Virus record (IMG/VR): IMGVR_UViG_3300026549_002476
Source: a virus
Lineage: Duplodnaviria > Heunggongvirae > Uroviricota > Caudoviricetes
Length of the DNA: 64,000 bases
Strand: one strand, 5' to 3'
The first letter of the stretch is position 1. Each line of letters starts with the position of its first letter. This document shows positions 22,546 through 64,000 of this stretch, piece by piece. The position numbers and the translations under genes are program-made. Below the pieces are notes generated by a model. The model had not been told where the DNA came from. It saw only the letters and a program-made list of their open reading frames with translations, and searched no databases.

Positions 22546-22561
22546 ATTATAGAGGTTGTGT

Positions 22562-25500
22562 ATGTATAGTAAAGGTAAATTTCATTCAAAAGGTAAAGAT
22601 TATGATGCTCTCGTAAATTACACGAAGAGTAGGACAGAAGTCCTGTTAATATCAAAAGGAACTATTGTATCAGCTTACAAAACTGATAAAACTGGGAATT
22701 ACAGCTTTGCAAGTATGGCTGCTCAGGATTTATTTAAGGTGGTATCAAAAGGTCTTGGCTATTGTAACTCTAAGAATGGAACACCTATGCCATTCGTTGG
22801 GTTAGGAGCAGTAACTAGACATGAGTTTAGCAAGATGAAGCTACACTATGATATTACTGAAATTAACCATGAGCTTGTGGAATGTGACATATCAAATAAT
22901 GAGACAGATGACAATGGAAGTTCTAAAATGACTCTTAATTTGTCTCATATTGATAAAGCTATTATTCCAAATAACATTGCATATGTTAAACTTACTGAAG
23001 TAAAAGATGTAAAAACTGTAGAAAATGCTGAAGAAGACCTTGACAATATAGTTACACGAAGTATTGAAGAGATTGCTCTAACTAAGGAAGACGGTGGAGC
23101 ATGGCTTAAGAACAAGAAATACTATATTGTCAATGATGACGCAACAGCTGAGCAGATTTTTGAATACCTTGACAATTATGATGGTGCTATTGCATATGAT
23201 ACAGAGACTACAGGGTTAAAGATTAACTGCTTTGGTAAAGTTGGTTCACATTATGAAAAGGAATTAGCAGAATATAATGCAAGTCACCCTGATGAAAAGA
23301 TTCGTGAGGACCGGCTTGTTGGGATTATTTTCTGTGTTGAACCGAATGTGAGCTATTATTTTCCAGTGTTTAACAGAAAGTTTAAGAATCTATATCAGGA
23401 TTTAAACAGTCCAATCCGTAAGAAAACTGTAGAGATCATTAAAGCAAGATATACAATTGGCGAGTTTAGGGATAGAGATTCTGACATGGCTAATTACATC
23501 AGAAACACCCCAGAGAATGAGTGGAGACTTGATGTAATTCTGATGGAACGTGTCAGAGATATTTTAAGCAAGAAGCATATTGTCACACATGGCGGAATTT
23601 TTGAGTGGCGCGTTGGATGGACTTATGAAATTGATACAAATATCTGCGATGACACGATGATTATTCATCAGTTAATTTATAAGTTTAGAAGTACAACGAG
23701 CAATGCAGGTGAGCCTTCTAACCTGAAGTATCTAGCTAAGCATGATCTTGGTGTTGACCAGTGGGAATTAAAGGATTTCTTCCCGAATTTCAAGGCTGAC
23801 GATACCGGACTTGTTAAAGAGCGTAAAGATGGTAAAGGGCCTAAAAAGGGAAGTAGAATTGATTTCTCATATATGGATTATGCTGGTACACAGATTTATG
23901 CACCAGCTGATGGAGACATGACTCTCGAGTTGTATTTGAAGTACAAGAAAGATATGCTTGAACATTTTAAGGACTTTGAGTATATCTATAATATTGAGAT
24001 TATTGTAACTTGTGCCATGGGTTATGTTGAGTTTTATGGACATAGAATTAATGAGAGTAAGATCAATGGTGCTCGTTTACAGACTGCCGCTGAAATAGTA
24101 GATGTAGAAGAGCAGATTAGACAAGCTATTAATTATGCTAGCCAAGATGAAATAAATGTACATAATCAGTTAAAGACGGCTATGACTGAGGCTGAAAAAG
24201 GCGATGTAAACGATCCAGCTATTTCTGGCAAGCTTGACGGGTTAGCTAAAAAACTTAGAGAAACAATTGATGCAAATACAGATCATGCTTTAAACATCAA
24301 TTCACCTGCACAGGTAGCTGCATTATTCTTTGATGTACTTGGTTATCCCGATCCAGATGGAAAGAGATCAGTGAGCAAGAAGGTTTACAAAGGTCTTGCA
24401 AAGGAAGTTGGGGATGACGGTAAACTGAAGTATCCAATCGCTGGTTTATATCAGAAATACAAGGCTAAGGTAACACTTCAAACAAAATTCTTTGATCAAT
24501 TGCAGTATTTCCAGTATCCAGAGGGGTTGATTTTTTCTGATTTTGGTCAGATCAGTACTGCTACAGGCCGTATGAGTTGCAAACATCCAAATTGCCAGCA
24601 GTACCCTAAAGTTATTACCAAGATCGTTGAGCCAAGACCTGGATACATTATGTTGGATGCTGATTATTCACAGATTGAGTATCGTGTCCTTACAGCATTA
24701 GCTCATAACTCTGGATTAAGAGAACTGTTTAGTAGTCCTGATAGTGATTATCATACACTTATGGCTTCTCTAATGTATGGTGTTCCATATGCAAGCGTGA
24801 CACCACAGATGAGATCATCTGCAAAGAGTTTCAATTTTGGTATACCATATGGCATGGGCTTTAAGTCATTAGCAATATTACTTCATGGAAACGCATCTCC
24901 AGAATCAGTAGATGACGCAAAAGTCAAATATGAAATGTATTTTAAGAACCAGCCAAACACTCGCAAATTCTTTGATAATGTTAAGGAACAAGCTCAGGTG
25001 TATGGATATACTAAAACAGCATTTAATCGTAGGAGATATTATAATTTTACATCAAAAGATGGAACAGTTAATAATGCAAAAAAGGCAGCAGCATTAAGAC
25101 AAGCAGGTAACGCTGTTATTCAAGGATGCCTCAGTGGTGAAACTAGGATACAAACGAAAGAATTAGGTATCATTAAAATTAAGGATGCAGTCAATACACA
25201 TCTACATGTATGGGATGGTAATACCTGGGCAGAAGGAGATGTACTTTATTCAGGAAAGAAACAGAAGTGCATTGTTACATTCAGTAATGGACAAAAGTTC
25301 ATTTGCAGTCCAATTCATAAGTTTCTTGTGAAGAGCCATAAGGGTAATACCAGGTTTGTAGAGTGTAAGGATCTGTTAACCAAAGCAAATTCAAAGAACC
25401 CTCATAGGATTGTGATTAATCCTAAGTATGAGAAGTCTGATTTTGTTTATTCTAGCAATTGGGCTAGAAGATATGATGAAATTAGTAACAATGCTAATAA

Positions 25501-33361: not shown

Positions 33362-33434
33362 AACATATAAGCCCGATGGTGGTGAATCTAGGGTGATCCT
33401 TAAATTATTTATATACTTAGGAGGAAATTTTATT

Positions 33435-35945
33435 ATGCCACAGGTAGTAAAAAGAGACAATCGAGTAGTTCAATTTGATGCGTCTAAAATTGAAAATGCA
33501 GTTTTGAAAGCATTCATTGACGTAGACAAGGAGGTGACGCCATTTGCAAGAGATAAGGCCCACAATATTGCAGTATATATTGAGGGTCAGGCTCAAGACA
33601 AAACACTGACAATTGAACAGATTCAGGATTACGTAGAGAATGGTTTAATGGCTACTAAGAGAAAAGATGTAGCCAGAGCTTACATGAGTTACCGAATGAA
33701 TAGAACGATAGCTCGTGAAAGAAAATCTTCTTTACACAAAGCCATTGAAGAGAAAATCTTGGCCAGTGATGTTAAGAATCAGAACGCCAATGTTGATGAA
33801 CACAGTTTTGGTGGTCGTAAAGGAGAAGCAGATAGTGTTTATATGAAGCAGTATGCTTTAAACTATCTTATCTCTGATAAGGCAAGATTCAATCATGAGA
33901 ATAACAGAATTTACATTCATGATCTTGATAGCTACGCAGTTGGTTCTCACAATTGCCTTACAGTACCATTTGATCACCTTCTGTCACATGGGTTCACAAC
34001 TCGCCAGACTGACGTTAGACCAGCAAGAAGTATCAGTACAGCAATGCAGTTGGTAGCAGTTATTTTCCAGCTACAGTCACTTGACCAGTTCGGTGGTGTA
34101 AGTGCAAGTCATATTGACACTTCGATGGTGCCATATGTAAGAATGAGCTTTAAGAAGCATTACATTACTTCTTATGTACTTGACTCAGATGATTTTGATA
34201 AGCTCAATGTTGATACAATGACTGAAGAAGAGCTTGATGACTTCATTGATGAGCGTAAAGATGAGTACATGAAGAAGTTAAACCTTACTGATTCAGATTT
34301 TACATTTGACAGTACAAAACTTGATGAACATCTCAAGAAGAAGGCAATACTTCTCACACGCAGGGAAGTTTATCAGGCAGTCGAAGCAACATTCCATAAC
34401 CTAAATACCTTGCAGAGCAGAAGTGGCAACCAGCTCCCCTTTACAAGCATTAATTTTGGATTGGATACTTCCCAAGAGGGTCGTTTAGTAACTCGTGCAC
34501 TTCTTGAGAAATCTATTGAGGGCGTTGGAAGTGTTCATAGAACATCAGTATTTCCTTGTTCCATTTTTCAAGTTAAGTCTGGCATTAACAAGTATCCGGA
34601 TGATCCGAACTACGACTTGTTTATGCTAGCTTTAAAGAGTACATCATTACGACTTTACCCAAATTATGCAAATGCAAATGTTAAGATGCAGCAGAATTGG
34701 GTTAAGATGGACAGGGAAGTTAAGCACAGAGTGATTAATGAGATGTCCGATGAAGATAAAAAGACATTAGCAATTAGATTAAAAGAGAATCCGAGTTTAC
34801 AGGAATCACTTCTTCTCGACTTACATGATGATGGTACATTCACAGTTCATGAAGAAGAAGTACCTATTGAAGTGTTCTCAACCATGGGATGCAGGACTCA
34901 GAACGGCTTTGATTGTTGGGCTGAACATTCATTTAGAGAGAATGTGGCTCATGTAATTAAAGACGGAACATTGTATGATAATTATGTATCTGGAGCACAG
35001 AAAGATGGACGTGGAAACATTTGTCCAGCTACAATAATTCTTCCTACACTTGCTATGGAGGCAAGAGAGAAGGCAGGAGATGGAGCAACTGAAGATGAAC
35101 TTGTAGAAACTTTTATGAATATACTTTCAGTTGCACTTGATGACACTAGGGATGAATTGATGGAGCGTTTCGAGCATATTTGTTCACAGTCAGCTAAGTC
35201 AGCTCCGTTTATGTATCCTAATAACACAATGTATGGATATGTACCTGCTGAAGGAATTCGTTCAGCATTACGCCATGGGACATTAGCCGTAGGTCAGTTG
35301 GGTATAGCAGAAACACTTCAGCTTCTGATTGGTTGTGATCAGACTAATCCAAAGGGTTTGGCATTAGCTGAAAGAATTGAACAGCTTTATGAAAAGAAAT
35401 GTAACGAGTTTAAAAAGAAGTATCATTTGAATTTTGGAGTATACTTCACCCCAGCAGAGAACCTGTGTTATACTGCAATGCTTAAGTTCCAGAGTAAGTA
35501 TGGCAAGATTAAGGGTGTATCAGACAAGGATTTCTTCACAAACAGCATGCATGTGCCAGTTTGGGATAAGATTGATCCATTTAAGAAAATTGACATTGAA
35601 TCTAAATTAACTAAGTATAGTACAGCTGGATGCATTACTTACATTGAACTTGACAATAATTGTCGTAACAACTTAAAAGTGTTGGAGCAGATGGTAGTTT
35701 ATGCCATGGATCATGATGTTCCATACTTTGCAATTAATGTGCCGAATGACACATGTTTGGATTGCGGTTATACTGGTGAGTTTAATGATCATTGTCCAGT
35801 GTGTGGAAGTAAACATATTCAACAGTTACGACGTGTAACTGGCTATCTTACTGGCAATTACACAACAGCATTTAATAAAGGTAAGCAAGAAGAAGTTAGG
35901 ATGCGCTATAAGCATTCAAATAGCTTAAGTAACTGGAATAAATAA
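33435..35945 (+). CDS. nrdD: anaerobic ribonucleoside-triphosphate reductase (class III RNR)
   Basis: RBS ggagga plus ATG at 33435. N-terminal ATP-cone (VVKRDNRVVQFDASKIENAV). C-terminal Zn ribbon CLDCGYTGEF…CPVCGS and glycine-radical motif RRVTGYL. Confidence 0.85.
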   Translation: MPQVVKRDNRVVQFDASKIENAVLKAFIDVDKEVTPFARDKAHNIAVYIEGQAQDKTLTIEQIQDYVENGLMATKRKDVARAYMSYRMNRTIARERKSSLHKAIEEKILASDVKNQNANVDEHSFGGRKGEADSVYMKQYALNYLISDKARFNHENNRIYIHDLDSYAVGSHNCLTVPFDHLLSHGFTTRQTDVRPARSISTAMQLVAVIFQLQSLDQFGGVSASHIDTSMVPYVRMSFKKHYITSYVLDSDDFDKLNVDTMTEEELDDFIDERKDEYMKKLNLTDSDFTFDSTKLDEHLKKKAILLTRREVYQAVEATFHNLNTLQSRSGNQLPFTSINFGLDTSQEGRLVTRALLEKSIEGVGSVHRTSVFPCSIFQVKSGINKYPDDPNYDLFMLALKSTSLRLYPNYANANVKMQQNWVKMDREVKHRVINEMSDEDKKTLAIRLKENPSLQESLLLDLHDDGTFTVHEEEVPIEVFSTMGCRTQNGFDCWAEHSFRENVAHVIKDGTLYDNYVSGAQKDGRGNICPATIILPTLAMEAREKAGDGATEDELVETFMNILSVALDDTRDELMERFEHICSQSAKSAPFMYPNNTMYGYVPAEGIRSALRHGTLAVGQLGIAETLQLLIGCDQTNPKGLALAERIEQLYEKKCNEFKKKYHLNFGVYFTPAENLCYTAMLKFQSKYGKIKGVSDKDFFTNSMHVPVWDKIDPFKKIDIESKLTKYSTAGCITYIELDNNCRNNLKVLEQMVVYAMDHDVPYFAINVPNDTCLDCGYTGEFNDHCPVCGSKHIQQLRRVTGYLTGNYTTAFNKGKQEEVRMRYKHSNSLSNWNK

Positions 35946-42059: not shown

Positions 42060-43247
42060 ATGGCACTTAAGAGTTTTATCTCTACGGCTAAGCGTGTAAC
42101 TGATGTGAGGACTTTCCTCAAGGATTCTGCTAAGGGAAACAGTATCAAGTATACTTCTGAGCAGAACAAGAGAGATGTTCTGTATGTACCCATGATCAAG
42201 CAGCAGGTTACCGATGAGAATGGAAATACTGTTGAGGTCAATTCCATTATTTCTATTGAAGCTGACATTCATGAGTGGCGTGACAGTAGCAACAATTCTT
42301 TCCATGGTTGTGTCTGTATGAAGAATGTTGTACGCACTGATGATGATGGAAATACCATCAATGACGGTACTTGCCCGTTCTGTGACAGAGTTAATGATAG
42401 CTGGGCTATCTACAACTACAGAAAGAACATTGAGGAAGCTAACTGCAAGCTGACTGGTGATGATCGTGACAAGTTCCTCAAGGAGAAGGGATCATCATTC
42501 CGTGACGAGATGAAGATTAAGGCAGCAAAGCCTTACATGTATATCCTCGTTGCAAAGTTTAGAACTGAGGGGAATCAGTTTGTACTTGATGATTCTGGTA
42601 TGCCTGAATATGATCTCAAGGTTTGGAAGGTTTCTGCAAGCCGTGCACAGGCTCTGTATGATATTCCTCACAATACTGGCCTTGAACTTCCGGGATGTAC
42701 TCTTGTTATCAAGTATCCGGATGAAGCAAACGTAATGCAGAGAGCTGGTCATGCAACAATTACTGCTACTAACCAGCCGACTATTGCTCCGACTGCTAAG
42801 TATCCGGCACTTGCTGATAAGATCAATGCAGAAGCAGCAAAGTTCGATTGGGAAGGCATTTCTAAGGCATTCCCTGAGTTTGAAGGTATGTCTACTGCAC
42901 AGGCTAAGAAGATTATGGATAACAGCTTTGAGCAGTGGGATTCTTACCAGAAGGAACTTGAGGTTAACAAGGATGCTAAGTACCTTGAGTATGTAGTTGA
43001 GCCTGTTAAGACTGCTCCGTCAACTGTTACTCCTGCTCTTGGAGCTGTTCCTGTTCCTAACATTCCGAATGTTGGTCAGGCAGCTAATGTTCAGATGCCA
43101 GGTCAGGGCGTCCAGCCGACAGTACAGCAGGCAGTACCTCAGCAGGCAGCACCTCAGCAGGCAGCACCTCAGCAGGCAGCACCTCAGCAGGCAGCACCTC
43201 AGCAGAGCAATCCGTTTGCAAATATGGCACCAACTCTTAATCTGTAA
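42060..43247 (+). CDS. putative T4 gp32-like ssDNA-binding protein with C-terminal (P-Q-Q-A-A)n repeats
   Basis: Strong RBS ggaggtttaag. Zn-site-like H…C-x-C…C-P-F-C as in gp32 (His64/Cys77/Cys87/Cys90). YMYILVAKF… and LKVWKVSASRAQALYD resemble the gp32 core (YWANILVVKDP, VFKYRFGKKIWDKI). GC-rich codon usage and a strong terminator suggest high expression. Confidence 0.45.
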   Translation: MALKSFISTAKRVTDVRTFLKDSAKGNSIKYTSEQNKRDVLYVPMIKQQVTDENGNTVEVNSIISIEADIHEWRDSSNNSFHGCVCMKNVVRTDDDGNTINDGTCPFCDRVNDSWAIYNYRKNIEEANCKLTGDDRDKFLKEKGSSFRDEMKIKAAKPYMYILVAKFRTEGNQFVLDDSGMPEYDLKVWKVSASRAQALYDIPHNTGLELPGCTLVIKYPDEANVMQRAGHATITATNQPTIAPTAKYPALADKINAEAAKFDWEGISKAFPEFEGMSTAQAKKIMDNSFEQWDSYQKELEVNKDAKYLEYVVEPVKTAPSTVTPALGAVPVPNIPNVGQAANVQMPGQGVQPTVQQAVPQQAAPQQAAPQQAAPQQAAPQQSNPFANMAPTLNL

Positions 43248-43280
43248 TAGATAAGAGTTGGCCCGTAGCCTTAGGGCATT

Positions 43281-43318
43281 GGGCACGGCATTGAATATAA
43301 ATGTCGTGCCCTTTTTTT
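43281..43318 (+). terminator. strong rho-independent terminator
   Basis: gggcacg…cgtgccc stem followed by ttttttt. Confidence 0.8.
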
Positions 43319-43344
43319 ATTACTAATTGACATTAGGACAAAAG

Positions 43345-44220
43345 ATGGCACATAAATATTATGCAGTAGTAAGAGGAAACTTCACTGGAATTTTTAATGG
43401 ACTAGATGAGTTCAATAAGGCTACTAAAGGTTCTAAGCGTACAATAGCTAAAGGATTTGATAACTTAAGTTCAGCATCTGATTACATGATAAAAAATGGT
43501 GTTAAATCCAGTAAGGTTAAGAAATACTGTAAGAAACTAAATGCAAACAATAAAGAAGAGAATCAGAGTTTAGCAGATAAGATTAAAGACCTTGAGATTG
43601 AAAGTAACAATTATGAAGGCAGTATAACAATTAGTTCTACTGATGATACATCTGTTAATAATGAAGAAACGAGCTATCAGCAAGAAGATATAAGTGACAT
43701 TGATACTTCTCATGGAAGTGTAGCTGATATAAAGAGTTGTATAGAATCTCTTGATAGAAATTCTATCATAGCTATAGTAGATGGCAGCTGCGATGCAGGG
43801 TATTCTGGAAATATAGCTAGCGCTTGTATAATTTATGAGAAAACTAATGGAATTATAAAAAAGAACATTATCTGGAAAGCTAACAATGTTTCAGTATCTG
43901 ATGGAAAAATAACAAGCCAGTTTGTTGAAGTTGAAGCCATAATGTTAGCTTTGCAATATGCCAAGTATCATAAGAAAAAGAAAGTAGTAGTTTACAATGA
44001 TTGTTTACCGGCTTTATATTTATTGAATAACAATAAAGGGAATGATGAGAAAACAGTCATTTACAGTTGGAAATACCAGAGATACTTAAATGATCTAGAT
44101 ATAACATTGAGATACATACCTGGGCATTCTGGTAATTTTTATCAAGATGAAGTTGATAAATTAGCAGTTGCAGTTAGATCCAATACAGATCTATGGGGAA
44201 TAAAATTCTTGGAGGTTTAA
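43345..44220 (+). CDS. rnhA: ribonuclease H with N-terminal Cauli_VI / RNase H1 N-terminal domain
   Basis: N-terminus MAHKYYAVVRGNFTGIFNGLDEFNKATKGSKRTIAKGFDNLSSASDYM is the Cauli_VI signature. C-terminal IVDGSCDAGYSG…VEVEAIMLALQYA…VYNDCLPALYLL…GHSGNFYQDEVDKLA matches the RNase H D-E-D-(H)-D motifs. ATG at 43345 (the track start at 43327 is a TTG). Confidence 0.8.
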   Translation: MAHKYYAVVRGNFTGIFNGLDEFNKATKGSKRTIAKGFDNLSSASDYMIKNGVKSSKVKKYCKKLNANNKEENQSLADKIKDLEIESNNYEGSITISSTDDTSVNNEETSYQQEDISDIDTSHGSVADIKSCIESLDRNSIIAIVDGSCDAGYSGNIASACIIYEKTNGIIKKNIIWKANNVSVSDGKITSQFVEVEAIMLALQYAKYHKKKKVVVYNDCLPALYLLNNNKGNDEKTVIYSWKYQRYLNDLDITLRYIPGHSGNFYQDEVDKLAVAVRSNTDLWGIKFLEV

Positions 44221-44221
44221 T

Positions 44222-45652
44222 ATGAAGTACAGTCCAATATCAAAAATTTACATCCAAGATTTTAGAAATCTTGGTAATGTAGCAATTGACTGGACAAAAT
44301 CACCTATAGTAGTGTTGACTGGTGAAAATGAAGCTGGTAAGACTTCAGTTATTAAAGCCTTTACAGTATTAGCTCTTCATGCAACACCAAATGCACAGAG
44401 TGGTTATATCAGAGATGGACAGAAGCAGTTTGGAGTTGCTTGTGACTTAGCTGATGGAACAAGAATTATAAGAGTTAAGCAGAGACCTGGTGGATTTGGT
44501 ACAGTAAACAATTATAGCATAACTTATCCAGATGGTAAAAAGTGGGCAATTAATAAACTTAGTGATGGACTTCCAAAGCCAGTATCTGATCTAATGGGAA
44601 TGATTGTTGAGCCAGATACAGGCGAGTATTTACAGGTTAGAACATACGAAGATAAGTTATTATTTGCTGTAACCCCGTTTAGTACTAACTATAAAGTTAT
44701 GTACAATGCTTTAAAAGTTGAGCAGTTGACAAAGGCTATTAAACTTGGAAGCGATGAAGTTAATAGATTGAAGAGAGAGATTGAATCAACTGAAACAAGT
44801 ATTTTGACTCTTAGAGATCAGGCTAGAGAAATTAAGGTTCTTGATACTGAAACTCTTGTAAACATCAAAGATAGGCTTAAGGATGAATTAAATACTCTTG
44901 ATAAAATTGAAAAGCTTAAGTCATTGATTGATAATGTAGATAGGGCTGAAGATCAACTTGGAGCATTGGCGTTGATTGATAAGTTTGGACTTAGAAGCAT
45001 TGATGAGATTCATTGTTTAAGAGTATTAAACATTGCTAAAGCTTTAGATAATATTAAGAAAGCTGAAGATCAACTTGGAAGTTTAAAATTAATCACAGAT
45101 AATAACTTGCATGGCATAGATGAAATGCTAGCATCTAATTTGAAAAATGCTAGCCGATTGATAGAAAACTCAACTAAACTGAAGAATAAGTTATCAAAGG
45201 TTAGTGAGGTAAGTACTATTCATGAAATTGATCTGAGCCAGTTAAATCAGATAGAAAAAGTGATTAATAAAAAGGCTTACATTGAGAGAAAATTAAGTGA
45301 CTCTCACGGGCTGACATTGGTTAATGATTTGCAGGAAATTTCTGGTACTGATATGGTACGTTTAGATAAGCTATCAAATCTTTATCAGTTGATAAACGAT
45401 GTAAAGCAAAAAGAAAGCAAGTTAAAGATTATTGATACCTCTGAGTATAAAGAAATAAGCATAGATTATCTTGAGAAGTTTGATAAAATTAGAAATTATC
45501 TTGCTGATTCTAATGAGAAGCAGCAGACTGTAAATAAGGTCAAAGATTTTCTGGAACAGGCTAATAACTGGCTTAAGCAACAGGGTATTGCAGTTGAAAC
45601 TTGTCCAAATTGTGGTGAAACAGTAATTTTTGATCTTGATAAACTGAGGTGA
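44222..45652 (+). CDS. SbcC/Rad50-like ATPase, N-terminal half (Walker A plus long coiled coil ending in a CPNC zinc hook)
   Basis: RBS ggaggtt. YIQDFRNLGNVAIDWTKSPIVVLTGENEAGKTSV (AAA_23-like P-loop). Coiled coil with an internal 39-aa tandem repeat. Ends …CPNCGETVIFDLDKLR. Confidence 0.5.
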   Translation: MKYSPISKIYIQDFRNLGNVAIDWTKSPIVVLTGENEAGKTSVIKAFTVLALHATPNAQSGYIRDGQKQFGVACDLADGTRIIRVKQRPGGFGTVNNYSITYPDGKKWAINKLSDGLPKPVSDLMGMIVEPDTGEYLQVRTYEDKLLFAVTPFSTNYKVMYNALKVEQLTKAIKLGSDEVNRLKREIESTETSILTLRDQAREIKVLDTETLVNIKDRLKDELNTLDKIEKLKSLIDNVDRAEDQLGALALIDKFGLRSIDEIHCLRVLNIAKALDNIKKAEDQLGSLKLITDNNLHGIDEMLASNLKNASRLIENSTKLKNKLSKVSEVSTIHEIDLSQLNQIEKVINKKAYIERKLSDSHGLTLVNDLQEISGTDMVRLDKLSNLYQLINDVKQKESKLKIIDTSEYKEISIDYLEKFDKIRNYLADSNEKQQTVNKVKDFLEQANNWLKQQGIAVETCPNCGETVIFDLDKLR

Positions 45653-45657
45653 TTCTA

Positions 45658-46635
45658 ATGGCTAATTTAATTGCAAGAATAGGTATTTATGGGGACATTC
45701 ATTTGAGTAGCAAGAACTATGGAGCACATAGAGATTATCCTAATGAAAGTCTCAATTACTTTAGAAACATTACAAAGATAGCCGAAGAAGGAAGGTTTAC
45801 ACATCTTATTGGTTGTGGTGACTTTTCCTTCGGCAGATTTGGTACTCTTGAATATAGATTGGCAGTTGAGGAAGAACTCCAGAAGCAGTGTAATCTTACA
45901 AAAGGCAATAGATATGAATTGAAAGGCAATCATGATATTGCTGGATACGGTATGACAGAAAGAGATTACTATATTAAGAAGGGATTGATCAAAGACTCAA
46001 CTAATTTTAGCATTGGGAATCTTAACATATCAATGGTAGATTATGGATGTGCTAATACAGCTAATATGAACATCAAGTTAGATTCTGGAATGGTCAATTT
46101 AGCTATAGCTCATGACTTTTATAGATTCAGCAATACTAATACACCACAGTTCGGGCAGGCCATAATTCTTGACAATATGAAGAATTGGTTTGGACTTGAC
46201 TATTTGATTTGTGGTCATGTACATAAGCAGATGACATTTGAAGGTGAAATTGAAAATGCAGATAAAACAGCAAAACATAAGCTGATTGTTGATTATCCAG
46301 GTTCACCTTCTAGACCATCATATAGAGAAGGATACATGGATGAAAATGGTCAAGTGCCAATAATAGATGTTTATGATGATGGAAAGATTGATTTTAACAT
46401 TGCCGAGTTTGATTTGTTGCCATTGAGTGAATCCTTTAATCTCGAAGAAAAGGCTGAAGAAGCTAAGCAAAAAGAAGAGAAAGAAAAGAAAGTTGATATT
46501 TCTGACATAGTGCAGGAATTGGATGCTCATGATAGAAATGTTGGAAACCCAGAAGATATTATAAGATCTATGGAAAATATTGATCAACGATATAAAGATA
46601 AGGCTATTGATTTACTTGAAAGGGCTTTAGCTTAA
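45658..46635 (+). CDS. sbcD: SbcD/Mre11-like calcineurin-type phosphoesterase (nuclease)
   Basis: RBS gaggtg plus ATG at 45658. Phosphoesterase motifs GIYGDIHLS, GCGDFSFG and GNHD. Confidence 0.7.
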   Translation: MANLIARIGIYGDIHLSSKNYGAHRDYPNESLNYFRNITKIAEEGRFTHLIGCGDFSFGRFGTLEYRLAVEEELQKQCNLTKGNRYELKGNHDIAGYGMTERDYYIKKGLIKDSTNFSIGNLNISMVDYGCANTANMNIKLDSGMVNLAIAHDFYRFSNTNTPQFGQAIILDNMKNWFGLDYLICGHVHKQMTFEGEIENADKTAKHKLIVDYPGSPSRPSYREGYMDENGQVPIIDVYDDGKIDFNIAEFDLLPLSESFNLEEKAEEAKQKEEKEKKVDISDIVQELDAHDRNVGNPEDIIRSMENIDQRYKDKAIDLLERALA

Positions 46636-46721
46636 TAAATTTGATAAGATGACATAATTCTAATAAAGGTGTTTTTAAAATTTAATTTATTAGATTTAAA
46701 ATTTTTGGAGGATCTAAACAA

Positions 46722-47255
46722 ATGATGCCGGTTAACATTGAAGAAATTAAAAAGTATAACCAGTCTTTGAAGCAGTACAAGGATAAGGCAGCCAGTTTAA
46801 CTGCTGAAATTGAGTACAACAATAGGGAAATTGACAACCTTTGTAAAGAGCTTTCAGCTGAGTTAGGAGTTGAGGTAACTAGGGATAACATTGAAGAAAT
46901 CTATAATGACCAGGTTAATAAGATTAATTCAATGTTACAGACTGGAACCACAGTACTTCAGAAGATTGCAAACGAAGAGAGTAAGGCAGAAGTACAGGCA
47001 CCTGTTGAGGAAACACCTGTAGATACAACAGCTTCAGCAAATCCTGTAACACCAACAAATCCAGTTAATCAGATGCCACAGTTTAGTTTTGGTAATGAGC
47101 CAGAAAGAGAATCTCATATAAATGTAGATGTTGAGAAGACACCTGAGGGTACCTCAACAACATTTGAACTTCCTGACGATGACGATGAAGATGAAGAGTC
47201 ATCAAATTTTGGTAGTTTTGATCCTAATAAGATCCCACCATTGTTTAATAACTAA
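46722..47255 (+). CDS. hypothetical coiled-coil protein with acidic C-terminal tail (…DDDDEDEESSNFGSFDPNKIPPLFNN)
   Basis: Strong RBS ggaggatct. The tail resembles SSB-type acidic C-terminal tips. Confidence 0.4.
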   Translation: MMPVNIEEIKKYNQSLKQYKDKAASLTAEIEYNNREIDNLCKELSAELGVEVTRDNIEEIYNDQVNKINSMLQTGTTVLQKIANEESKAEVQAPVEETPVDTTASANPVTPTNPVNQMPQFSFGNEPERESHINVDVEKTPEGTSTTFELPDDDDEDEESSNFGSFDPNKIPPLFNN

Positions 47256-47288
47256 TAAATAGATTTGTAATTGGAGGACTTTAATAGT

Positions 47289-48665
47289 ATGATTATTGAT
47301 ATTAATGTTATTAATTCAGCACTTGATAAGATTTCAGATTTAACTTCTGGTGACAAGTCAATGCCCGGACTTCTTCTTGATATTCATGATGAGGACATGG
47401 ATGTTTGTTACTCCGACGGACGCAAGTCTATCATTGATACTATTCCTATCAAAACTGAAGATGGGGATGTCAAGGAGAGAATTGCAGTTACTTATGAGTT
47501 ATTCAAGAATGCAATCAATAACTGTAAGCCAAGCGGAGATATTATTGTAGATAACATCAAGTTTGTGTTTCATACTGATAATTCTACTTTTGATATCATC
47601 AGTGATAATAAGTGTAAAATTGGTGATGGAGATGATGCACAGTATAAGAAGATTTCTACAAAGCAGTTTCTTATTAAGTACACTAATCCTGAAGCTGATA
47701 ACAGAATGAAAGTTCTTTTGAGAGCGAAATACTCAGAAATGTTTAATCCAGAAGCAAATCCTGATACACTTTCAAAGGATGAGCTTACAAATGCTCTTAG
47801 CAAGACAGCTACTGAAAAGGGTAAGCAGGTTTACATTTCAAAAGGTAAGCAGACAGTATTTGTTGTAAACCAGAATTTTGTAACTTGTGTACCGATTGCA
47901 CCTAATGAAGACGGAAGCAATAAGTTGAATTACTCCATGGTAATTCCACAGAACATTGCAAAGTCTATTGTAAACATTGCAAATAGAGTTGCATCTGATG
48001 CTTGGTCATTGTATAATAAGGATCAGAACATCTGTGTTATGTTTACAGAAACAGAGAATGAAAGAGTTGGCATTAGTTTCCAGATGCCAAGTGCTCAGAA
48101 GACTATTGTAGCAGCTCTTCAGAGATATGAGAGTCTTAATTATGATTCTTATAGAATGATGTTTATGAGAGCATTCTTTGTAGATGCTGTTAAGACAGCT
48201 AAGGCTTCTGTAGAGAATCCTAATGTAGAAATTGACTTTGAGAACACCGATGAAGGCATGAAGATGGTCATCAATGGTGGAAATGCAAATGCTTCTACTA
48301 AGAATAAGTATGAAATTACTTGTGAAGATGTACTTGATAATGTTGGTGATCTAGATGGAAAGAAGTATACAATGTCAATTAACAATTTGAGTGATGTTCT
48401 TAATCAGTTTGATGCTGGAGACATTGTATTTGATATTACAGACGATCCAGATGCAAAGATGGTTTATGTAAGGGTAGCTGATGTTGATCGTGATAAACTT
48501 GTTGAAGATTTTGGTAAGATGAGAGAAGAGATGCAGCAGCGTTGCGTTGATAGGGGAGAGACTTTTGATCCTGCTGTTACTCCTACTGATAAGGATCTTA
48601 AAACTAAGTGGCTTAGAAACTGTATGACAACAAAAGAATACTTTATTGTTAATAACAAAGCTTAA
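47289..48665 (+). CDS. hypothetical protein (possibly a replisome accessory protein; unverified)
   Basis: RBS ggagg plus ATG at 47289. Location within the recombination/replication cluster. Confidence 0.35.
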   Translation: MIIDINVINSALDKISDLTSGDKSMPGLLLDIHDEDMDVCYSDGRKSIIDTIPIKTEDGDVKERIAVTYELFKNAINNCKPSGDIIVDNIKFVFHTDNSTFDIISDNKCKIGDGDDAQYKKISTKQFLIKYTNPEADNRMKVLLRAKYSEMFNPEANPDTLSKDELTNALSKTATEKGKQVYISKGKQTVFVVNQNFVTCVPIAPNEDGSNKLNYSMVIPQNIAKSIVNIANRVASDAWSLYNKDQNICVMFTETENERVGISFQMPSAQKTIVAALQRYESLNYDSYRMMFMRAFFVDAVKTAKASVENPNVEIDFENTDEGMKMVINGGNANASTKNKYEITCEDVLDNVGDLDGKKYTMSINNLSDVLNQFDAGDIVFDITDDPDAKMVYVRVADVDRDKLVEDFGKMREEMQQRCVDRGETFDPAVTPTDKDLKTKWLRNCMTTKEYFIVNNKA

Positions 48666-48672
48666 ATTGATT

Positions 48673-49176
48673 ATGAAAAGAGTCTATTTTGATCAAGATG
48701 GTGTCTTAGCTGAATATAAAGTTGAATCAACGGATGTAGATTATGCCCGTGAAGGATACTATTCAGAATTAAAACCAACTAAAGTAGTTGAATATGTTAA
48801 TTCATTGATTAAAGCAAACATAGCTGAAGTATATGTAATAACAATATATTATAAAAAGCCTGCATTTAAAGAAAAAGACGAATGGATGAGCAGATACTTA
48901 CCAAGCTTGGATTCAAAACATAGAATAATTCTTCCTTGGGGAAGCAGTAAGCCATTAGAAGTCGAAAAGATAACAGGTTGTAGGCTAAGCAGTAATGATA
49001 TATTGGTAGATGATCATACTCCAAACTGTTTAGATTGGCAAAGTTTTGGTGGTATGGCAATCAAATGGATTAATGGTATAAACGGAAATCGAAATAGGTT
49101 TAATGGATTACGTATTGACAATTTAAATGAATTAGATAGCATTATTACTGGAGGCAAATTACTGTGGAAAACGTAA
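48673..49176 (+). CDS. NT5C-family 5'(3')-deoxyribonucleotidase (HAD superfamily)
   Basis: N-terminus KRVYFDQDGVLAEY carries the D-x-D-G-V-L motif of NT5C/HAD phosphatases. Confidence 0.55.
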   Translation: MKRVYFDQDGVLAEYKVESTDVDYAREGYYSELKPTKVVEYVNSLIKANIAEVYVITIYYKKPAFKEKDEWMSRYLPSLDSKHRIILPWGSSKPLEVEKITGCRLSSNDILVDDHTPNCLDWQSFGGMAIKWINGINGNRNRFNGLRIDNLNELDSIITGGKLLWKT

Positions 49177-49760
49177 AATTTAGAGTAACAAAGAATAATA
49201 GTGATAGTTTTGGAAAGTATCTTTCTTATCTGCTTAGACATCATCCTGATAAGATTAATCTTTGGGTTGATCTTGATGGCGGTTGGACTAACACAGATGA
49301 TCTTATTGAGAAGATCAATGCATCTGATACAAATCCATTTACAATTACTAAGCCTGTACTTATTGATATTGTAGAAGCTGATGAAAAGAAGAGATTCTCT
49401 TTTAGAGATGATTATAGATACATTAGAGCAAACAGCGGTCATTCTATTCCGGTTCAGCTGAAGTTTGATGAAGTTACACCTGAGAATGATTTGTTCCACG
49501 GGACAGCTCCTCGTACTGCTAAGAGTATTCAGCAGAGTAAGTACATTATTCCAATGAACAGAATGTATGTGCATCTTTCAGATAATGTTGAAACTGCTAA
49601 AAAGGTTGGCGCTAGACATTGTAAGGACGGAGAAACTCCTGTTGTATTTCGTATTGATGTAAAGAAATGTCTTGAACTTGGTGTGAAATTCTATAAGTCA
49701 GAGAATGGAATTTATATGGCAACTAGAATTCCAACTGAAGCAATCAAGGTTGAAGAGTAA
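49164..49760 (+). CDS. kptA: RNA 2'-phosphotransferase Tpt1/KptA
   Basis: GTG start with RBS ggagg. FGKYLSYLLRHHPDKINLWVDLDGGWTNTDDLI, KRFSF, GHS, LFHGTAPRTAKSI, YVHLSDNVETAKKVGARH align well with E. coli KptA (SKFLSFVLRHKPE…, LYHGTASRF…, YVHLSADEATARKVGARH). Confidence 0.85.
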   Translation: MENVKFRVTKNNSDSFGKYLSYLLRHHPDKINLWVDLDGGWTNTDDLIEKINASDTNPFTITKPVLIDIVEADEKKRFSFRDDYRYIRANSGHSIPVQLKFDEVTPENDLFHGTAPRTAKSIQQSKYIIPMNRMYVHLSDNVETAKKVGARHCKDGETPVVFRIDVKKCLELGVKFYKSENGIYMATRIPTEAIKVEE

Positions 49761-49787
49761 TAATTATCTAGGAGATAGATAAATATA

Positions 49788-50549
49788 ATGAATACAGATG
49801 AACTTAGAAAGCAGGCCAATGACTTTATTACAGCTGTTGAGCAGATAGATATTGAAAATAGGGCTGCCATCAGAAGTAAGGAAGCCTTGATGAAGTCAAT
49901 CAATGAACTTGATAAAAAGTGTAAAGATAACAGAGAAGCTCATGAAATAGCTCAAAATGCTATTACAATACTTAGACAGGTATCTGATGAAGCAGTCGGA
50001 AAAGCCTATAAATTCCTTGAGCAGAGTTTAAATGCAGCTTTAGCAAGAATGTTCGTTAGTTCAACTCGTAAGATTGAACTTAAGGAACATACACTTAGAA
50101 ATCAGTATCCACAGCTTGAGATTATTCTCCATGTAGGTGGTGGTAAAACAAGATCATTGAAAACTGATAGTGGTCACGGAATTGCTCAGATTGTATCATT
50201 GTTGAGTGTATTGAGTTTGATAGTTATTTCTGGTTGTAGACGTATCCTTGTTATGGATGAAATCCTTAGTGGTATTTCAGCTAGAAATAGAAAAATTGTA
50301 TCTGACATTCTGTGGTCATTTACAACAATAGGGTTCCAGTTCATGATAGTTGAGCGAGGTTTCATTCCAGAAGGTGCTCAGGTATACAATCTTAAAATGG
50401 AGGGTGACGTTAGCCATGTAGTTGATTCCTATATAGAAACTGATGGAGTATACTTAATGGCTGATGAATCCGCTCAGTTTAAGAATGACAGTGGGATAGA
50501 TGTTAAGGCTTCTAAAACATCTGCTGATAATGAAGTTGTTAGTATTTAA
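49788..50549 (+). CDS. SbcC/Rad50-like ATPase, C-terminal half (short coiled coil, signature-like motif, Walker B)
   Basis: RBS aggagat. …KTDSGHGIAQIVSLLSVL… then RRILVMDEILSGIS (Walker B/D-loop) and MIVERG. Confidence 0.45.
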   Translation: MNTDELRKQANDFITAVEQIDIENRAAIRSKEALMKSINELDKKCKDNREAHEIAQNAITILRQVSDEAVGKAYKFLEQSLNAALARMFVSSTRKIELKEHTLRNQYPQLEIILHVGGGKTRSLKTDSGHGIAQIVSLLSVLSLIVISGCRRILVMDEILSGISARNRKIVSDILWSFTTIGFQFMIVERGFIPEGAQVYNLKMEGDVSHVVDSYIETDGVYLMADESAQFKNDSGIDVKASKTSADNEVVSI

Positions 50550-50572
50550 ATACTTAGATTATAGTGTAGCGT

Positions 50573-50616
50573 TAAGACTCCTAGTAAGCATTATTTACTA
50601 GGAGTCTTAATTTTTT
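50573..50616 (+). terminator. rho-independent terminator
   Basis: taagactcctagtaa…ttactaggagtctta followed by atttttt. Confidence 0.75.
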
Positions 50617-50761
50617 ACCGAAGTGATTATTATTTTTATAGACTTAATTATAACTAGTTGTTATTGTTGATTAGCATACAAAATTTAACCTTAAAAGGAT
50701 CATAGAAATTATATAAAAAATGAAATTTATTTTTAAAACTAAAAATTAGAGGGAATTAACC

Positions 50762-52276
50762 ATGAATCAACAACAAGCTTATTGCATAATAATAGTCAGC
50801 ATTAAGAAAAATTATGTGACTGGTAAAATAATTTCTTACGATATTATAACAAATAGAGGGGAAGTGCTGTTTGACCTTAGAGAAGAAGAATTACTTGTAA
50901 AAGTATGGTCTCTTAGGGGAAGTAATGTTGTAACAGTCAATTTTGAAGTAAATAAAAATAAAATTGTTATGTTAAACATGCTTCCTGGTAAGAAAGCTAG
51001 GTATTATGCTAAAAAGACAGTATCAAAATCTGAAAGAAGATATTTTTACATTGTTGTAACTGGATATGACATGAATAATGGAACTTTTGACTATGTTGCA
51101 GAAAAGCCAGATAGAAAGGTTATTCGTGGAAACAGTGCAATTATAGAAGAACTTGTTGGATTGCCAATAAGCAGCAATGATGATTCTGCTGACTTGAGAT
51201 TTTATAATGCATATATAGATAACACAATAAGTAGTAGAAAAACAATGTTTAGACTTGTAGTATATAATAAAAATACTGATGGATATACAGTTCTTCCAGT
51301 TGCTAGAATAAGCAAAAAAGATTTTAACTTAAAGATTAATAGTGATTTTTCAGCACATGGGTTTAAACAAGAAAATGCTGGAATAACTATTAGAAAGATA
51401 ACTCAAGATATAGTAAGAAGAGATAGTACACTCGAAATTCCAGATGGTGTAACTCAATTAGGTAGACTTGAATCATATGGGCCTGTTATAGTATCTTGTC
51501 CAGACTCATTAGTTAACCTTGGAAATGGTTGTTTTGCTAAATATGTAAATCATAGGAACGGTGAATCTTTTAATAAAGCAAATATACTAAATGAGCAAGA
51601 CTATACAGAGTGCCAGTTATCAGAGATATACTTAGGTTCTGGCATTCGAATTATTCCAAAAGATTGTTTTGCATATTCACCAGTTAAGTTTGTGCAGTTA
51701 TCCGGTAGGGAAGTATATATAGCAAATGGGGCTTTTAAATACACAGAGAATCTTAGCGGAACAGTAAGTACAACTGCTAGAAAAATAGGAGTATCTGCTT
51801 TTGAAGGTTCTGGAATAAATACGTTTACTGGGGATAAGCTAGAGTACATTGGTATGAAAGCCTTTAGTAAATGTCCAAACTTATACAGAGTAAAGATCAA
51901 AGGCGAGTTACTGATTATTGGAATGAATATCTTTGATGGAGATGCTAACCTAAGATATGTGTCATTACCAGATAGTGTTGAAGAAATAGGGGCTGAAGCA
52001 TTTCGTGGTTGTAAGCAATTAACAATGATGTTCATGCCAAGAAACATTAGGAAGGTTGGAATAAATGCTTTTAAAGGTTCTGGATTAGCTCAAGCTATAT
52101 TTGGAAATAGCCTTGAAAAAATAGATGAATCAGCATTTGATGATTGTAAGGAAATTCAAAGAATTGAAATACCAAGCACTGCTAAAATAATTCATCGAAT
52201 GAATGATAAAAAGGAACATTTATTAACATCAGAGAAACTCCAGAAAAGATATAATGTTAGAGTATATAAAGTTTAA
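50762..52276 (+). CDS. protein with C-terminal BspA-type leucine-rich repeats
   Basis: Repeats …GNGCFAKY / IPKDCFAYSPV / IANGAFKYTENL / IGVSAFEGSGI / IGMKAFSKCPNL / IGMNIFDGDANL / IGAEAFRGCKQL / VGINAFKGSGL / IDESAFDDCKEI. Confidence 0.55.
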   Translation: MNQQQAYCIIIVSIKKNYVTGKIISYDIITNRGEVLFDLREEELLVKVWSLRGSNVVTVNFEVNKNKIVMLNMLPGKKARYYAKKTVSKSERRYFYIVVTGYDMNNGTFDYVAEKPDRKVIRGNSAIIEELVGLPISSNDDSADLRFYNAYIDNTISSRKTMFRLVVYNKNTDGYTVLPVARISKKDFNLKINSDFSAHGFKQENAGITIRKITQDIVRRDSTLEIPDGVTQLGRLESYGPVIVSCPDSLVNLGNGCFAKYVNHRNGESFNKANILNEQDYTECQLSEIYLGSGIRIIPKDCFAYSPVKFVQLSGREVYIANGAFKYTENLSGTVSTTARKIGVSAFEGSGINTFTGDKLEYIGMKAFSKCPNLYRVKIKGELLIIGMNIFDGDANLRYVSLPDSVEEIGAEAFRGCKQLTMMFMPRNIRKVGINAFKGSGLAQAIFGNSLEKIDESAFDDCKEIQRIEIPSTAKIIHRMNDKKEHLLTSEKLQKRYNVRVYKV

Positions 52277-63601: not shown

Positions 63602-63624
63602 AATGAAACAGGAGAAATGATAAT

Positions 63625-64000
63625 ATGACTTTCACAATGATGTGTGGTTTGCCTGGTTCTGGAAAAAGTACTTACGCAAAAGAATTAGAAGATACTAATA
63701 CAGTTTTATTATCATCAGATAGAATTAGAGGAGAAATCTTTGGTGATGAAACTGATCAATGTCATAATAAAGAGATCTTTGAAGAAATGTTCAATAGAAC
63801 TATAAACAATCTCAATGCTGGCAAGAATGTTGTTTATGATGCTACCAATATTGATAGAATGAACAGAATGAATACTTTGAATAACATTAAGTATTCTCTT
63901 AGGGATGCAGGAAGTGTTGAGTTTAAAATCATTGTAGTCGTAAGAGCATTTGATGATTGTGTTGTAGCTGATGCTGAAAGAGAAAGAACAGTTGGTGAAA
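63625..64000 (+). CDS. P-loop kinase, polynucleotide kinase (T4 Pnk kinase-domain)-like; truncated by the window end
   Basis: RBS caggagaaatg plus ATG. MMCGLPGSGKSTYAKE (compare T4 Pnk IGCPGSGKSTWARE), downstream Asp residues. Confidence 0.5.
   Translation, partial: MTFTMMCGLPGSGKSTYAKELEDTNTVLLSSDRIRGEIFGDETDQCHNKEIFEEMFNRTINNLNAGKNVVYDATNIDRMNRMNTLNNIKYSLRDAGSVEFKIIVVVRAFDDCVVADAERERTVGE

Follow-up and report, generated by a model that had tools for sequence, protein, structure and literature searches.

The open reading frames at 44222-45652 and 49788-50549 each very probably encode one half of a single SbcC/Rad50-type ABC ATPase, which is specified as two polypeptides in this lineage of huge gut phages. 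Both lie in the 64,000-nucleotide stretch of Caudoviricetes DNA analyzed here, hereafter called the window (Table 1). A preliminary description of this DNA had reported such a split, and the observation is real; it recurs in hundreds of related huge-phage contigs. All open reading frames and coordinates of that description were recovered, together with the five genes that it placed between the halves, namely, Metallophos/SbcD, an acidic-tail coiled-coil protein, a 464-aa protein, NT5C, and Tpt1. The homology of each half, the complementary motif sets, the conservation of the split, the synteny, and the operon-like setting are all directly observed. We found no published description of a two-piece Rad50/SbcC cut just past the putative zinc hook.

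Table 1. Coordinates of the split SbcC/Rad50-like genes, their motifs, and the surrounding block
Feature	Position	Strand	Basis
Terminator-like hairpin (12 bp, 7 GC, then T-run), upstream of block	43281..43311	+	Terminator scan
RNase H-like gene, first of putative transcription unit	43327..44220	+	Pfam RNase_H 5e-8, Cauli_VI 8e-8; PHROG 531
SbcC/Rad50 N-half: N-lobe, long helical arm, terminal CPNCG knuckle	44222..45652	+	Pfam AAA_23 3e-7, AF2, Foldseek
Walker A, G34-ENEAGK-T41	44321..44344	+	Invariant in N-half alignment A4; aligns with SbcC and gp46 Walker A
Two tandem 39-aa arm units, one a lineage-specific insertion	44930..45163	+	117-nt spacing
Hook-like putative zinc knuckle, C461-P-N-C-G465, in terminal beta-hairpin	45602..45616	+	Invariant in A4
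SbcD/Mre11-like phosphoesterase, helical charged C-terminal region	45658..46635	+	Pfam Metallophos 1e-6
g3: ~95-aa coiled coil, P/T-rich linker, acidic run, C-terminal IPPLFNN tail	46722..47255	+	Translation
Beta-clamp-like protein, 464 aa	47271..48665	+	PHROG 947 "DNA polymerase processivity factor" 4.7e-7
NT5C-like nucleotidase, cargo	48646-49176	+	Variable slot just before C-half
Tpt1/KptA RNA 2'-phosphotransferase, cargo	49164-49760	+	4e-37; variable slot
SbcC/Rad50 C-half: ~88-aa coil, then C-lobe	49788..50549	+	Family profile versus Rad50 C-fragments
Signature-like motif, S128-G-H-G131	50169..50180	+	Invariant in C-half alignment A1; aligns with SbcC LSGGE, gp46 FSEGE
Walker B, I153-LVMD-E158, then D-loop ILSGI	50244..50261	+	Alignment with SbcC and gp46
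Arg190 at H-loop position	50355..50357	+	Alignment
Terminator-like hairpin (18 bp, then T-run), 22 nt past C-half stop codon	50571..50611	+	Terminator scan

The N-half carries the Walker A lobe, a long arm, and a terminal knuckle

The upstream gene product (476 aa) had been described as a Walker A head followed by a long coiled coil, and both elements were found, the arm being helical and about 300 residues long. The AAA_23 match and the best Foldseek matches, which were Rad50 N-fragments (3qkr_A at 2.6e-4, then 1f2u and 9a9j), indicate that the Rad50/SMC-fold N-lobe of SbcC, with its P-loop, is present. Moreover, hhalign paired residues 7 to 68 with residues 3 to 76 of SbcC at 94% probability. 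The AF2 model consists of the N-lobe and then seven helices over residues 157 to 453 (pLDDT 66); since its pTM is 0.34, the arrangement of these helices is unreliable. A Q-loop glutamine was not evident in the N-half, where the invariant R140-TYEDK falls opposite SbcC SQGQF in a low-identity MAFFT alignment.

The best PDB sequence matches of the N-half profile fell in the P-loops of ATPases of the OLD family and of retron PtuA (E = 0.0025-0.01). These matches would fit a reading in which the halves are not partners, the N-half being an independent AAA_23/AAA_15/OLD-like P-loop protein, such as a defense or counterdefense factor, and the C-half serving another protein. The same reading would fit relatives L010 and L011, in which no N-half was found within 4 to 7 kb upstream of the C-half. 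However, the OLD/PtuA matches reach residues 7 to 49 only, and a TOPRIM or other effector domain is absent. The two motif sets are also complementary, and the halves share contigs and the sbcD cassette across divergent lineages, which makes unrelated halves very improbable. An identity as a defense ABC ATPase of the OLD/PtuA/AbiEii type (AAA_15, AAA_21) was rejected on the P-loop-local matches, the absent effector domain, and the partner gene, which is SbcD.

The CPNC motif noted near the C terminus is present at residues 461 to 464, 12 residues before the end. A CxxCG lies 5 to 16 aa from the C terminus in 139/139 N-halves examined (120/120 Lak-like and 19/19 L012-type), and CxxC is rare in C-halves (8/270). 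The CP.CG sequence resembles the hooks of SbcC (PCPLCGS at 506/1048) and gp46 (LCPTCL at 288/560), yet this putative zinc site is C-terminal and predicted by AF2 to sit in a beta-hairpin.

The C-half supplies the signature and Walker B motifs

In the 253-aa C-half, the predicted structure has helices at residues 3 to 88 and strands after them. The starting coiled coil, the signature-like motif, and the Walker B motif had all been proposed, and each is borne out: SGHG and ILVMDE are collinear with their counterparts in E. coli SbcC and T4 gp46. An SbcC-type C-lobe with signature, Walker B, and D-loop is present. Across 106 diverse C-half members, no columns other than D157 and E158 are invariant. 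The H-loop histidine, which is kept in most Lak-like relatives and is a tyrosine in the L012-like subfamily, is absent from the window C-half; because Arg190 replaces it, ATPase kinetics may be unusual.

The family profile of the C-half covers the whole P. furiosus Rad50 C-fragment, coil stub included (3qkr_B, 1.2e-7), and also matches 1ii8_B (7.7e-7) and Smc/SMC3 heads. Pfam matches among the 106 members were AAA_21 in 27, SMC_N in 10, and SbcC_Walker_B in 2. Single-sequence comparisons of the split proteins with canonical SbcC and gp46 show weak similarity. The C-half alone gave a poor predicted fold (pLDDT 48.9), and Foldseek matches of this model to SMC/Rad50 heads were not significant. 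Nevertheless, the family does have Rad50/SMC-type ABC-ATPase homology, supporting the Rad50/SbcC reading.

Walker A is confined to the N-half, and the signature and Walker B are confined to the C-half; since each lacks the motifs of the other, neither half can be an ATPase alone. No intact SbcC/Rad50 was found elsewhere in the 64-kb window, where the sole other Walker A lies in an unrelated open reading frame at 63607+.

The split is conserved within a five-gene cassette

A comparison of fused and split genes in relatives, suggested by the preliminary description, gave no fused N-half/C-half among the matches listed. N-half homologues amounted to 553 matches, and the 120 among the matches listed were all stand-alone proteins of 432 to 476 aa; L012-type N-halves (n = 19) have 347 to 439 aa. 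For the C-half there were 622 close matches and 181 family representatives, every one among the matches listed being short, and the 150 of the 181 representatives that were listed are all stand-alone (51 to 336 aa). About 20 of the longest-contig sizes are identical in the N-half and C-half match lists, and both halves occur on one 522-kb scaffold.

The core cassette has the order N-half, sbcD, g3 (the coiled-coil/LF-tail protein), beta-clamp-like protein, and C-half. The same order appears again in two divergent huge-phage lineages, with instances in L004 and L016 and in the distant L012. A Metallophos gene directly 3' of the N-half is present in the window, L002, L004, L012, and L016. The window SbcD, for which a start at ATG 45658 is more likely than at GTG 45649, contains the motifs GDIHL, GCGD, GNHD, and GHVH and is homologous to the L012 sbcD (6.9e-25). 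Homologues of g3 occupy the same cassette place in L002, L004, and L016, and L012 and L005 have a protein with this architecture. The beta-clamp-like protein also has homologues in L002, L004, and L016. The L012 protein at the clamp position passes the Pfam DNA_pol3_beta cutoff; BLASTP of this protein against the window 464-aa protein detected no similarity. Before the C-half, the slot is filled by different genes, or is empty, in L012, L005, L004, L016, and L002. The split is not local but is an ancient conserved family trait inside a five-gene cassette, with NT5C and Tpt1 as cargo.

Only two terminator-like sites occur on the + strand in 43200-50900, bracketing the whole block, and none lies between 43311 and 50571.

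It could be argued that the halves are decaying remnants of an sbcC gene broken up by the insertion of other genes, or that they arise artifactually from assembly, recoding, an intron, or an intein, as genes sit between them and TAG is rare as a stop (1/41 large open reading frames), which made stop-codon recoding worth checking. Such an origin is extremely improbable. No cassette gene ends in TAG, both halves possess a ribosome-binding site and a start codon of their own, and the genes between the halves are five bona fide genes. In addition, the same split appears in hundreds of independent assemblies, and the catalytic motifs are invariant in sequences down to ~20% identity. A split intein or intron was likewise rejected, with no intein-like sequence at either the N-half end (...CPNCGETVIFDLDKLR) or the C-half start (MNTDELRK).

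Unequal arms and a proposed assembly

The asymmetry of the coils, previously put at about 260 versus about 80 aa, is real, with an N-half arm of ~297 aa and a C-half coil of ~88 aa. Instead of the equal-armed, one-chain layout of SbcC/Rad50, there are two genes 4.1 kb apart, and an N-half arm of ~258 to 297 aa against 88 aa is a misfit to the canonical antiparallel Rad50 coil. It had also been supposed that the two lobes would be joined only through the coiled coil/hook. Because the C-half coil falls short of the putative hook, the two halves probably meet at the head lobes and at the base of the coil.

Part of the N-half arm is a 39-aa internal repeat. Its 117-nt spacing agrees with the earlier account; its description as nearly perfect does not hold, as 16/39 amino acids and 58/117 nucleotides are identical. 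The two units, with 41% identity, represent an old duplication restricted to the lineage of the window: the extra unit is a gap in 39/40 A4 sequences, and relatives have 433 to 437 aa. No indel matching these additional 39 aa was found in the C-half coil or in g3.

We infer the assembly of the ATPase, its zinc binding, its arm topology, and its enzymatic activity as follows. Lobe I, with Walker A, would come from the N-half, and lobe II from the C-half, which brings the signature and Walker B motifs along with the D-loop and H-loop positions; on coexpression from one transcription unit, the lobes would pack noncovalently to make up the whole head. The ~88-residue C-half coil would pair antiparallel with the opening helix or helices of the N-half arm, and SbcD probably clamps the base of this coil through its helical C-terminal region. 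Two heads would dimerize on ATP, and the far ends of two N-half arms would be joined by one zinc ion between two terminal CPxCG knuckles, in the style of the Rad50 hook. Past the reach of the C-half, the distal arm would run without a covalently linked return strand and most likely self-associates, either between two N-half chains or by folding into repeats of ~40 aa. The complex may work like T4 gp46/gp47 or E. coli SbcCD, in DNA-end resection/processing for recombination-dependent replication. Its most likely predicted function is that of a noncovalently assembled SbcCD-type nuclease.

The same two-piece enzyme could have another arm topology, in which the N-half arm turns back on itself around an apex close to the AGAL..EISEISE loop (window residues 357 to 376). 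The break would then be a nick in the descending strand, and CPxCG a mid-arm zinc joint at the nick rather than a Rad50-type hook. In relatives without the 39-aa insert, the distance from head to loop is ~165 aa, against ~166 aa for loop to knuckle (~78) plus the C-half coil (~88). The loop is conserved and nonhelical in AF2, at low confidence, and prediction places the knuckle within a beta-hairpin resembling half of a zinc ribbon, not between two helices. However, the length agreement is a single numerical coincidence, the additional 39 aa of the window would unbalance the arms by precisely 39, CP.CG matches the hooks that SbcC and gp46 carry at the apex, and the AF2 pTM makes the helix layout unreliable. 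We consider a folded-back arm distinctly unlikely.

A more far-reaching reading, which we regard as speculative and rather unlikely, is that the five-gene cassette forms a single machine different in kind from canonical Mre11-Rad50. Its ring would be closed only by two N-half chains, the distal arms forming an N-half-only rod with a terminal zinc clasp. The C-lobe would be a detachable subunit, so that the head could open or be exchanged without breaking a covalent chain, and g3 would tether the nuclease to the beta-clamp-like ring. If true, phages with genomes as large as 0.67 Mb would have their DNA-end resection directly coupled to the replisome.

Significance and comparison with known systems

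How the arm and hook relay the ATP state to the nuclease, and the role of arm continuity in Rad50/SMC proteins, are active questions (PMC6969161, PMC7752040). A natural Rad50 without a return strand over two-thirds of its arm would mean that an unbroken chain between hook and C-lobe is not required in vivo, and it would offer a ready-made system to test the role of each arm strand. Since automated annotation labels the halves "AAA_23 ATPase" and "hypothetical protein," SbcC would score as absent or truncated in a large clade of gut huge phages.

With E. coli SbcCD and T4 gp46/gp47, the window system shares an ABC head of N-lobe and C-lobe, a helical arm with a putative zinc motif, CP.C(G), at its end, and an adjoining Metallophos nuclease gene; with T4 it also shares a replication/recombination module with a sliding-clamp gene nearby (T4 order 47-46-45). 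In contrast, SbcC (1048 aa) and gp46 (560 aa) each consist of one polypeptide whose hook lies about halfway along, whereas the N-halves of the window and its relatives stop 5 to 16 residues past the hook motif. The return coil and C-lobe are a separate gene 4 to 13 kb downstream in the window system and its relatives, the return coil is about one-third of the outgoing arm, and the sequence similarity is at the profile level only.

Close parallels are engineered Rad50 heads (PDB 1F2T/1F2U, 1II8, and 3QKR, chains A and B), in which separate N and C chains with coil stubs form an ATP-binding head. The window N-half matches chain A and the C-half chain B; because these PDB matches (3qkr, 1ii8, 1f2t) are themselves two-chain heads, separate Rad50 halves can assemble. 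They are laboratory truncations without arm and hook, whereas the window split is natural and leaves the entire arm and the hook motif on the N-chain.

T4 topoisomerase gp39/gp60 is a naturally split phage enzyme whose pieces reassemble after translation. Fragmented phage nrdA likewise yields an enzyme in pieces that is reassembled after translation (PMC3045599). Those splits are tied to mobile elements, young, and lineage restricted, whereas the window split is ancient, has no homing-endonuclease scar, and holds functional genes (sbcD, g3, clamp) between its halves. The phiKZ-like giant phages also have dispersed SbcCD genes, with sbcC far from sbcD, but only the subunit genes are apart and SbcC is intact (SPN3US gp186, 95.7 kDa) (PMC5105663); in the window, SbcC itself is in two pieces. 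Mimivirus-type Mre11/Rad50 fusion proteins are a viral change in the gene architecture of the same machine (PMC3175470), in the opposite direction: subunit fusion there, Rad50 fission here.

Two genes for the halves of an SbcC/Rad50-like ATPase

The ORFs between 44222 and 50549, from which the preliminary description had proposed an SbcC/Rad50 ATPase split at its zinc hook into two genes (here the N-half and the C-half), were recovered exactly. The window is AT-rich, has all of its large ORFs on the + strand and carries a phage-type replication module with PolA-like polymerase, NrdD-like reductase, RNase H and HNH endonuclease-like genes. In the NrdD-like protein, about 100 unmatched residues between the two matched stretches may represent an insertion. 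The position of the 395-aa protein gene ahead of RNase H suggests an SSB-like product.

Features of the window and positions of g3 genes at related loci
Feature	Coordinates	Strand	Description
Tandem HNH/homing-endonuclease-like ORFs	19370-20815, 20818-22545		Paralogous; PHROG 3339 and 559, E down to 1e-92
PolA-like DNA polymerase	22556-27274		1572 aa; directly downstream of the tandem HNH-like ORFs
NrdD-like anaerobic ribonucleotide reductase	33393-35945		Family match at residues 16-432 and 535-841
395-aa protein	42060-43247		CPFC motif; C-terminal (PQQAA)n repeat tail; no family match
Terminator-like hairpin	43281-43311	+	Strong
N-half	44222-45652	+	476 aa; Walker A GENEAGKT (residues 34-41); Pfam AAA_23, 3e-7
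SbcD			Directly after N-half; Metallophos phosphoesterase; Mre11/SbcD motifs GDIHL, GCGD, GNHD, GHVH
g3	46722-47255	+	177-aa coiled-coil protein with acidic tail; after SbcD
Clamp-like protein	47271-48665	+	464 aa; PHROG 947 "DNA polymerase processivity factor", 4.7e-7
NT5C-like nucleotidase and Tpt1	48646-49760	+	After clamp-like gene; Tpt1/KptA RNA 2'-phosphotransferase, 4e-37
C-half	49788-50549	+	253 aa; no Pfam match; PHROG "ATPase", 9e-7
Arg190 of C-half	50355-50357		Aligns with the H-loop His
Terminator-like hairpin	50571-50611	+	Strong; just past the C-half stop codon
ORF running off the window end	63607-63999		GLPGSGKS, sole other Walker A in the window
g3, L002	12878-13333
g3, L004	6364-6909
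g3, L012	7874-8770
g3, L005	1207-1827

Modeling of the N-half by AF2 with 40 homologues as input (pLDDT 66, pTM 0.34) gave a beta-rich N-lobe (residues 6 to 149), seven helices (157 to 453) and then a beta-hairpin bearing CPNC (461 to 464). Searching the PDB, Foldseek ranked Rad50 N-terminal fragments highest (3qkr_A, 2.6e-4; 9a9j_A; 1f2u), and full Rad50 (7zr1), SMC heads and RecF were also among the matches. A phmmer search of the PDB with the single N-half sequence gave nothing useful, the N-lobe retrieved only P-loop-level matches from the annotated phage collection, and a clear Q-loop Gln was not found in the N-half. Its reading as a defense-type OLD/PtuA ATPase was rejected.

For the C-half, phmmer with the single sequence, which is too divergent for such searches, and hmmsearch with a shallow profile of close relatives (A1) returned nothing useful from the PDB. 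Its family, of 181 members, was gathered by searching 1.84 billion representatives all-against-all with HMMER, and a deep profile built from 106 of them, the only C-half profile that worked against the PDB, covered the whole Pyrococcus furiosus Rad50 C-fragment (3qkr_B, E = 1.2e-7; profile positions 33 to 210 against chain residues 3 to 176). This profile also matched 1ii8_B, Smc/SMC3 heads and, locally, UvrA. The comparison of both halves with Rad50 thus leads to its N-fragments for one and its C-fragment for the other, bearing out the ABC-ATPase homology claimed for the C-half. Single family members match AAA_21, SMC_N, AAA_15 and SbcC_Walker_B in Pfam, and one carries an automatic annotation from its source, "DNA repair exonuclease SbcCD ATPase subunit." Modeled alone by AF2, the C-half gave a poor model (pLDDT 48.9), whose Foldseek matches to SMC/Rad50 heads were not significant.

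Alignment by MAFFT with Escherichia coli SbcC and T4 gp46 placed SGHG of the C-half on the signature, LVMDE on Walker B and ILSGI on the D-loop. The H-loop position is Arg in the window, His in most relatives of the window's own, Lak-like lineage and Tyr in the subfamily of the distant locus L012; this catalytic-switch residue is therefore unusually variable across the family. The motif sets are complementary, with Walker A in the N-half only and signature and Walker B in the C-half only. Neither another SbcC-like ORF nor the intact SbcC/Rad50 that would have spoken against a split was found within the 64-kb window.

The split is old and conserved

Homology searches returned 622 close homologues of the C-half (250 to 306 aa in the 120 listed) and 553 of the N-half (432 to 476 aa in the 120 listed), and about 20 identical longest-contig sizes, from 26.9 kb to 627.6 kb, are common to the two match lists. 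On a 522-kb scaffold, both genes lie in the same orientation, approximately 13.4 kb apart. The relatives, on contigs of up to 0.67 Mb, may be Lak-type megaphages, as their size suggests. A long SbcC was absent among the 150 listed representatives of the 181-member C-half family, all of 51 to 336 aa, so the search for a fused gene in related phages yielded only split forms among the listed relatives. In a second lineage (contigs of 60 to 334 kb), all 19 N-halves examined are 347 to 439 aa long, and they match the profile of the window N-half at 1.9e-26. Because the split recurs across relatives and in this second lineage, the fission is old and stable, and neither an assembly error nor a recent disruption.

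Each half is preceded by its own Shine-Dalgarno sequence. The 41 large ORFs of the window stop at TAA (30), TGA (10) or TAG (1), and no cassette gene stops at TAG. An intein was rejected, intein-like sequence being absent at the break, as were an intron, recoding, an assembly artifact and a pseudogene.

The break follows the hook-like motif, and the arms are unequal

A C-x-x-C-G motif lies 5 to 16 residues from the C-terminus in every N-half examined (120/120 and 19/19 in the two lineages), and the chain break therefore falls immediately after the hook motif. The Lak-like knuckle, CP.CG, is similar to the hooks found at the coil apex in E. coli SbcC (PCPLCGS, residue 506 of 1048) and T4 gp46 (LCPTCL, 288 of 560). 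Against the PDB, the N-half tail matched generic zinc-ribbon knuckles only and no Rad50 hook entry. Members of the C-half family seldom contain CxxC (8/270). As each N-half chain carries a single CxxC and the partner proteins have none, a putative four-cysteine zinc site would need two N-halves, as in the Rad50 hook.

The coils are asymmetric, as had been described: the outgoing arm measures 297 aa in the window (about 258 aa in relatives) and the C-half coil about 88 aa. The additional 39 aa correspond to one added unit, missing from all relatives in the 40-sequence N-half alignment (A4) but the near-identical P0121. The internal repeat reported earlier is thus present but far from nearly perfect; with 16 of 39 aa identical, it is an old duplication. 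The arm is weakly periodic, at about 40 aa (hhalign, 85 to 91% for some unit pairs, scores that coiled-coil composition can inflate), which is only suggestive of further internal repeats.

No compensating indel for the duplication was found in the C-half coil or in g3, which argues that the distal arm is not paired residue for residue with either. We favor, from these sequence comparisons, a distal arm that associates with itself, either between two N-halves or through modular folding. Less probably, the arm folds back at the AGAL..EISEISE loop, which is conserved, and the knuckle would then mark a nick in the strand that runs back down. In relatives, the lengths agree numerically with this topology (about 165 versus about 166 aa); the low pTM of the N-half model makes its helix arrangement unreliable.

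A conserved cassette with a variable slot

The order N-half, sbcD, g3, clamp-like gene, variable slot and C-half is found in the window, in L004, on the 522-kb scaffold (L002/L001), in L016 and in the distant L012. L016, a 203-kb contig, was the single IMG/VR locus returned by a search with A1. At the distant L010 and L011, no N-half was detected within 4 to 7 kb upstream of the C-half. The slot holds NT5C and Tpt1 in the window, two ORFs in L016, three in L004 and nine genes on the 522-kb scaffold; it is empty in L012 and L005, where the C-half start overlaps the clamp-like gene stop by 10 nt. Slot genes of relatives, unrelated to NT5C/Tpt1, encode LRR proteins and include EAL, sigma-70, DUF5131 and DUF4379 genes. 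Since the contents vary between contigs, NT5C and Tpt1 are cargo and no part of the machine, and the slot, immediately ahead of the C-half gene, acts like a hot spot for the insertion of cargo.

The two hairpins listed in the table, the only terminator-like ones on the + strand within 43200-50900, lie on either side of an eight-gene run whose first gene is RNase H and whose last is the C-half. This arrangement is consistent with a single transcription unit made up of these genes.

In the g3 protein, a coil of two helices (about 95 aa) is followed by a long disordered linker rich in P, T and V and by an LF-type C-terminal tail (IPPLFNN, LPPLFNMGN, MFKGLF or AFAGLFNG); a beta-clamp-like gene always follows directly. 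Through this tail, a possible clamp-binding motif, g3 may link the nuclease to the clamp. The 464-aa protein, previously described as unknown, is probably a divergent beta-clamp-like protein, and the L012 protein at the same cassette position passes the Pfam DNA_pol3_beta cutoff. Between the two lineages, BLASTP detected no significant similarity for g3 or the clamp-like protein; they are equated on the basis of position, architecture and weak matches to clamp families.

Proposed assembly and comparison with known systems

The cassette most likely encodes a non-covalently assembled nuclease of the SbcCD/gp46-gp47 type. Two lobes, one per half, would form the ATPase head; lobes also assemble in the engineered two-chain Rad50 heads of the PDB, which the window halves match. 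The coil base would be common to both halves, with the helical C-terminal part of SbcD probably acting as its clamp; zinc would join the N-arms, and the complex would process DNA ends for recombination-dependent replication. T4 offers a likeness, since in its gene order 47-46-45 the equivalents of sbcD and sbcC adjoin the clamp gene.

Blastn and tblastn searches of the annotated phage collection with the region, the C-half, SbcD and two distant members gave no match, and full-text literature searches brought up no account of an SbcC or Rad50 that is split in nature. Overall, the two-piece SbcC/Rad50 is a real, conserved architectural variant of a well-known machine, apparently undescribed so far. 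SbcC and SbcD are reported to be practically universal in jumbo phages (Iyer et al., PMC7824862). The nearest published statements are on phiKZ-like phages, in which sbcC and sbcD lie far apart and SbcC is intact (PMC5105663), whereas here SbcC itself is split; the Mre11/Rad50 fusions of Mimivirus represent the opposite direction (PMC3175470).
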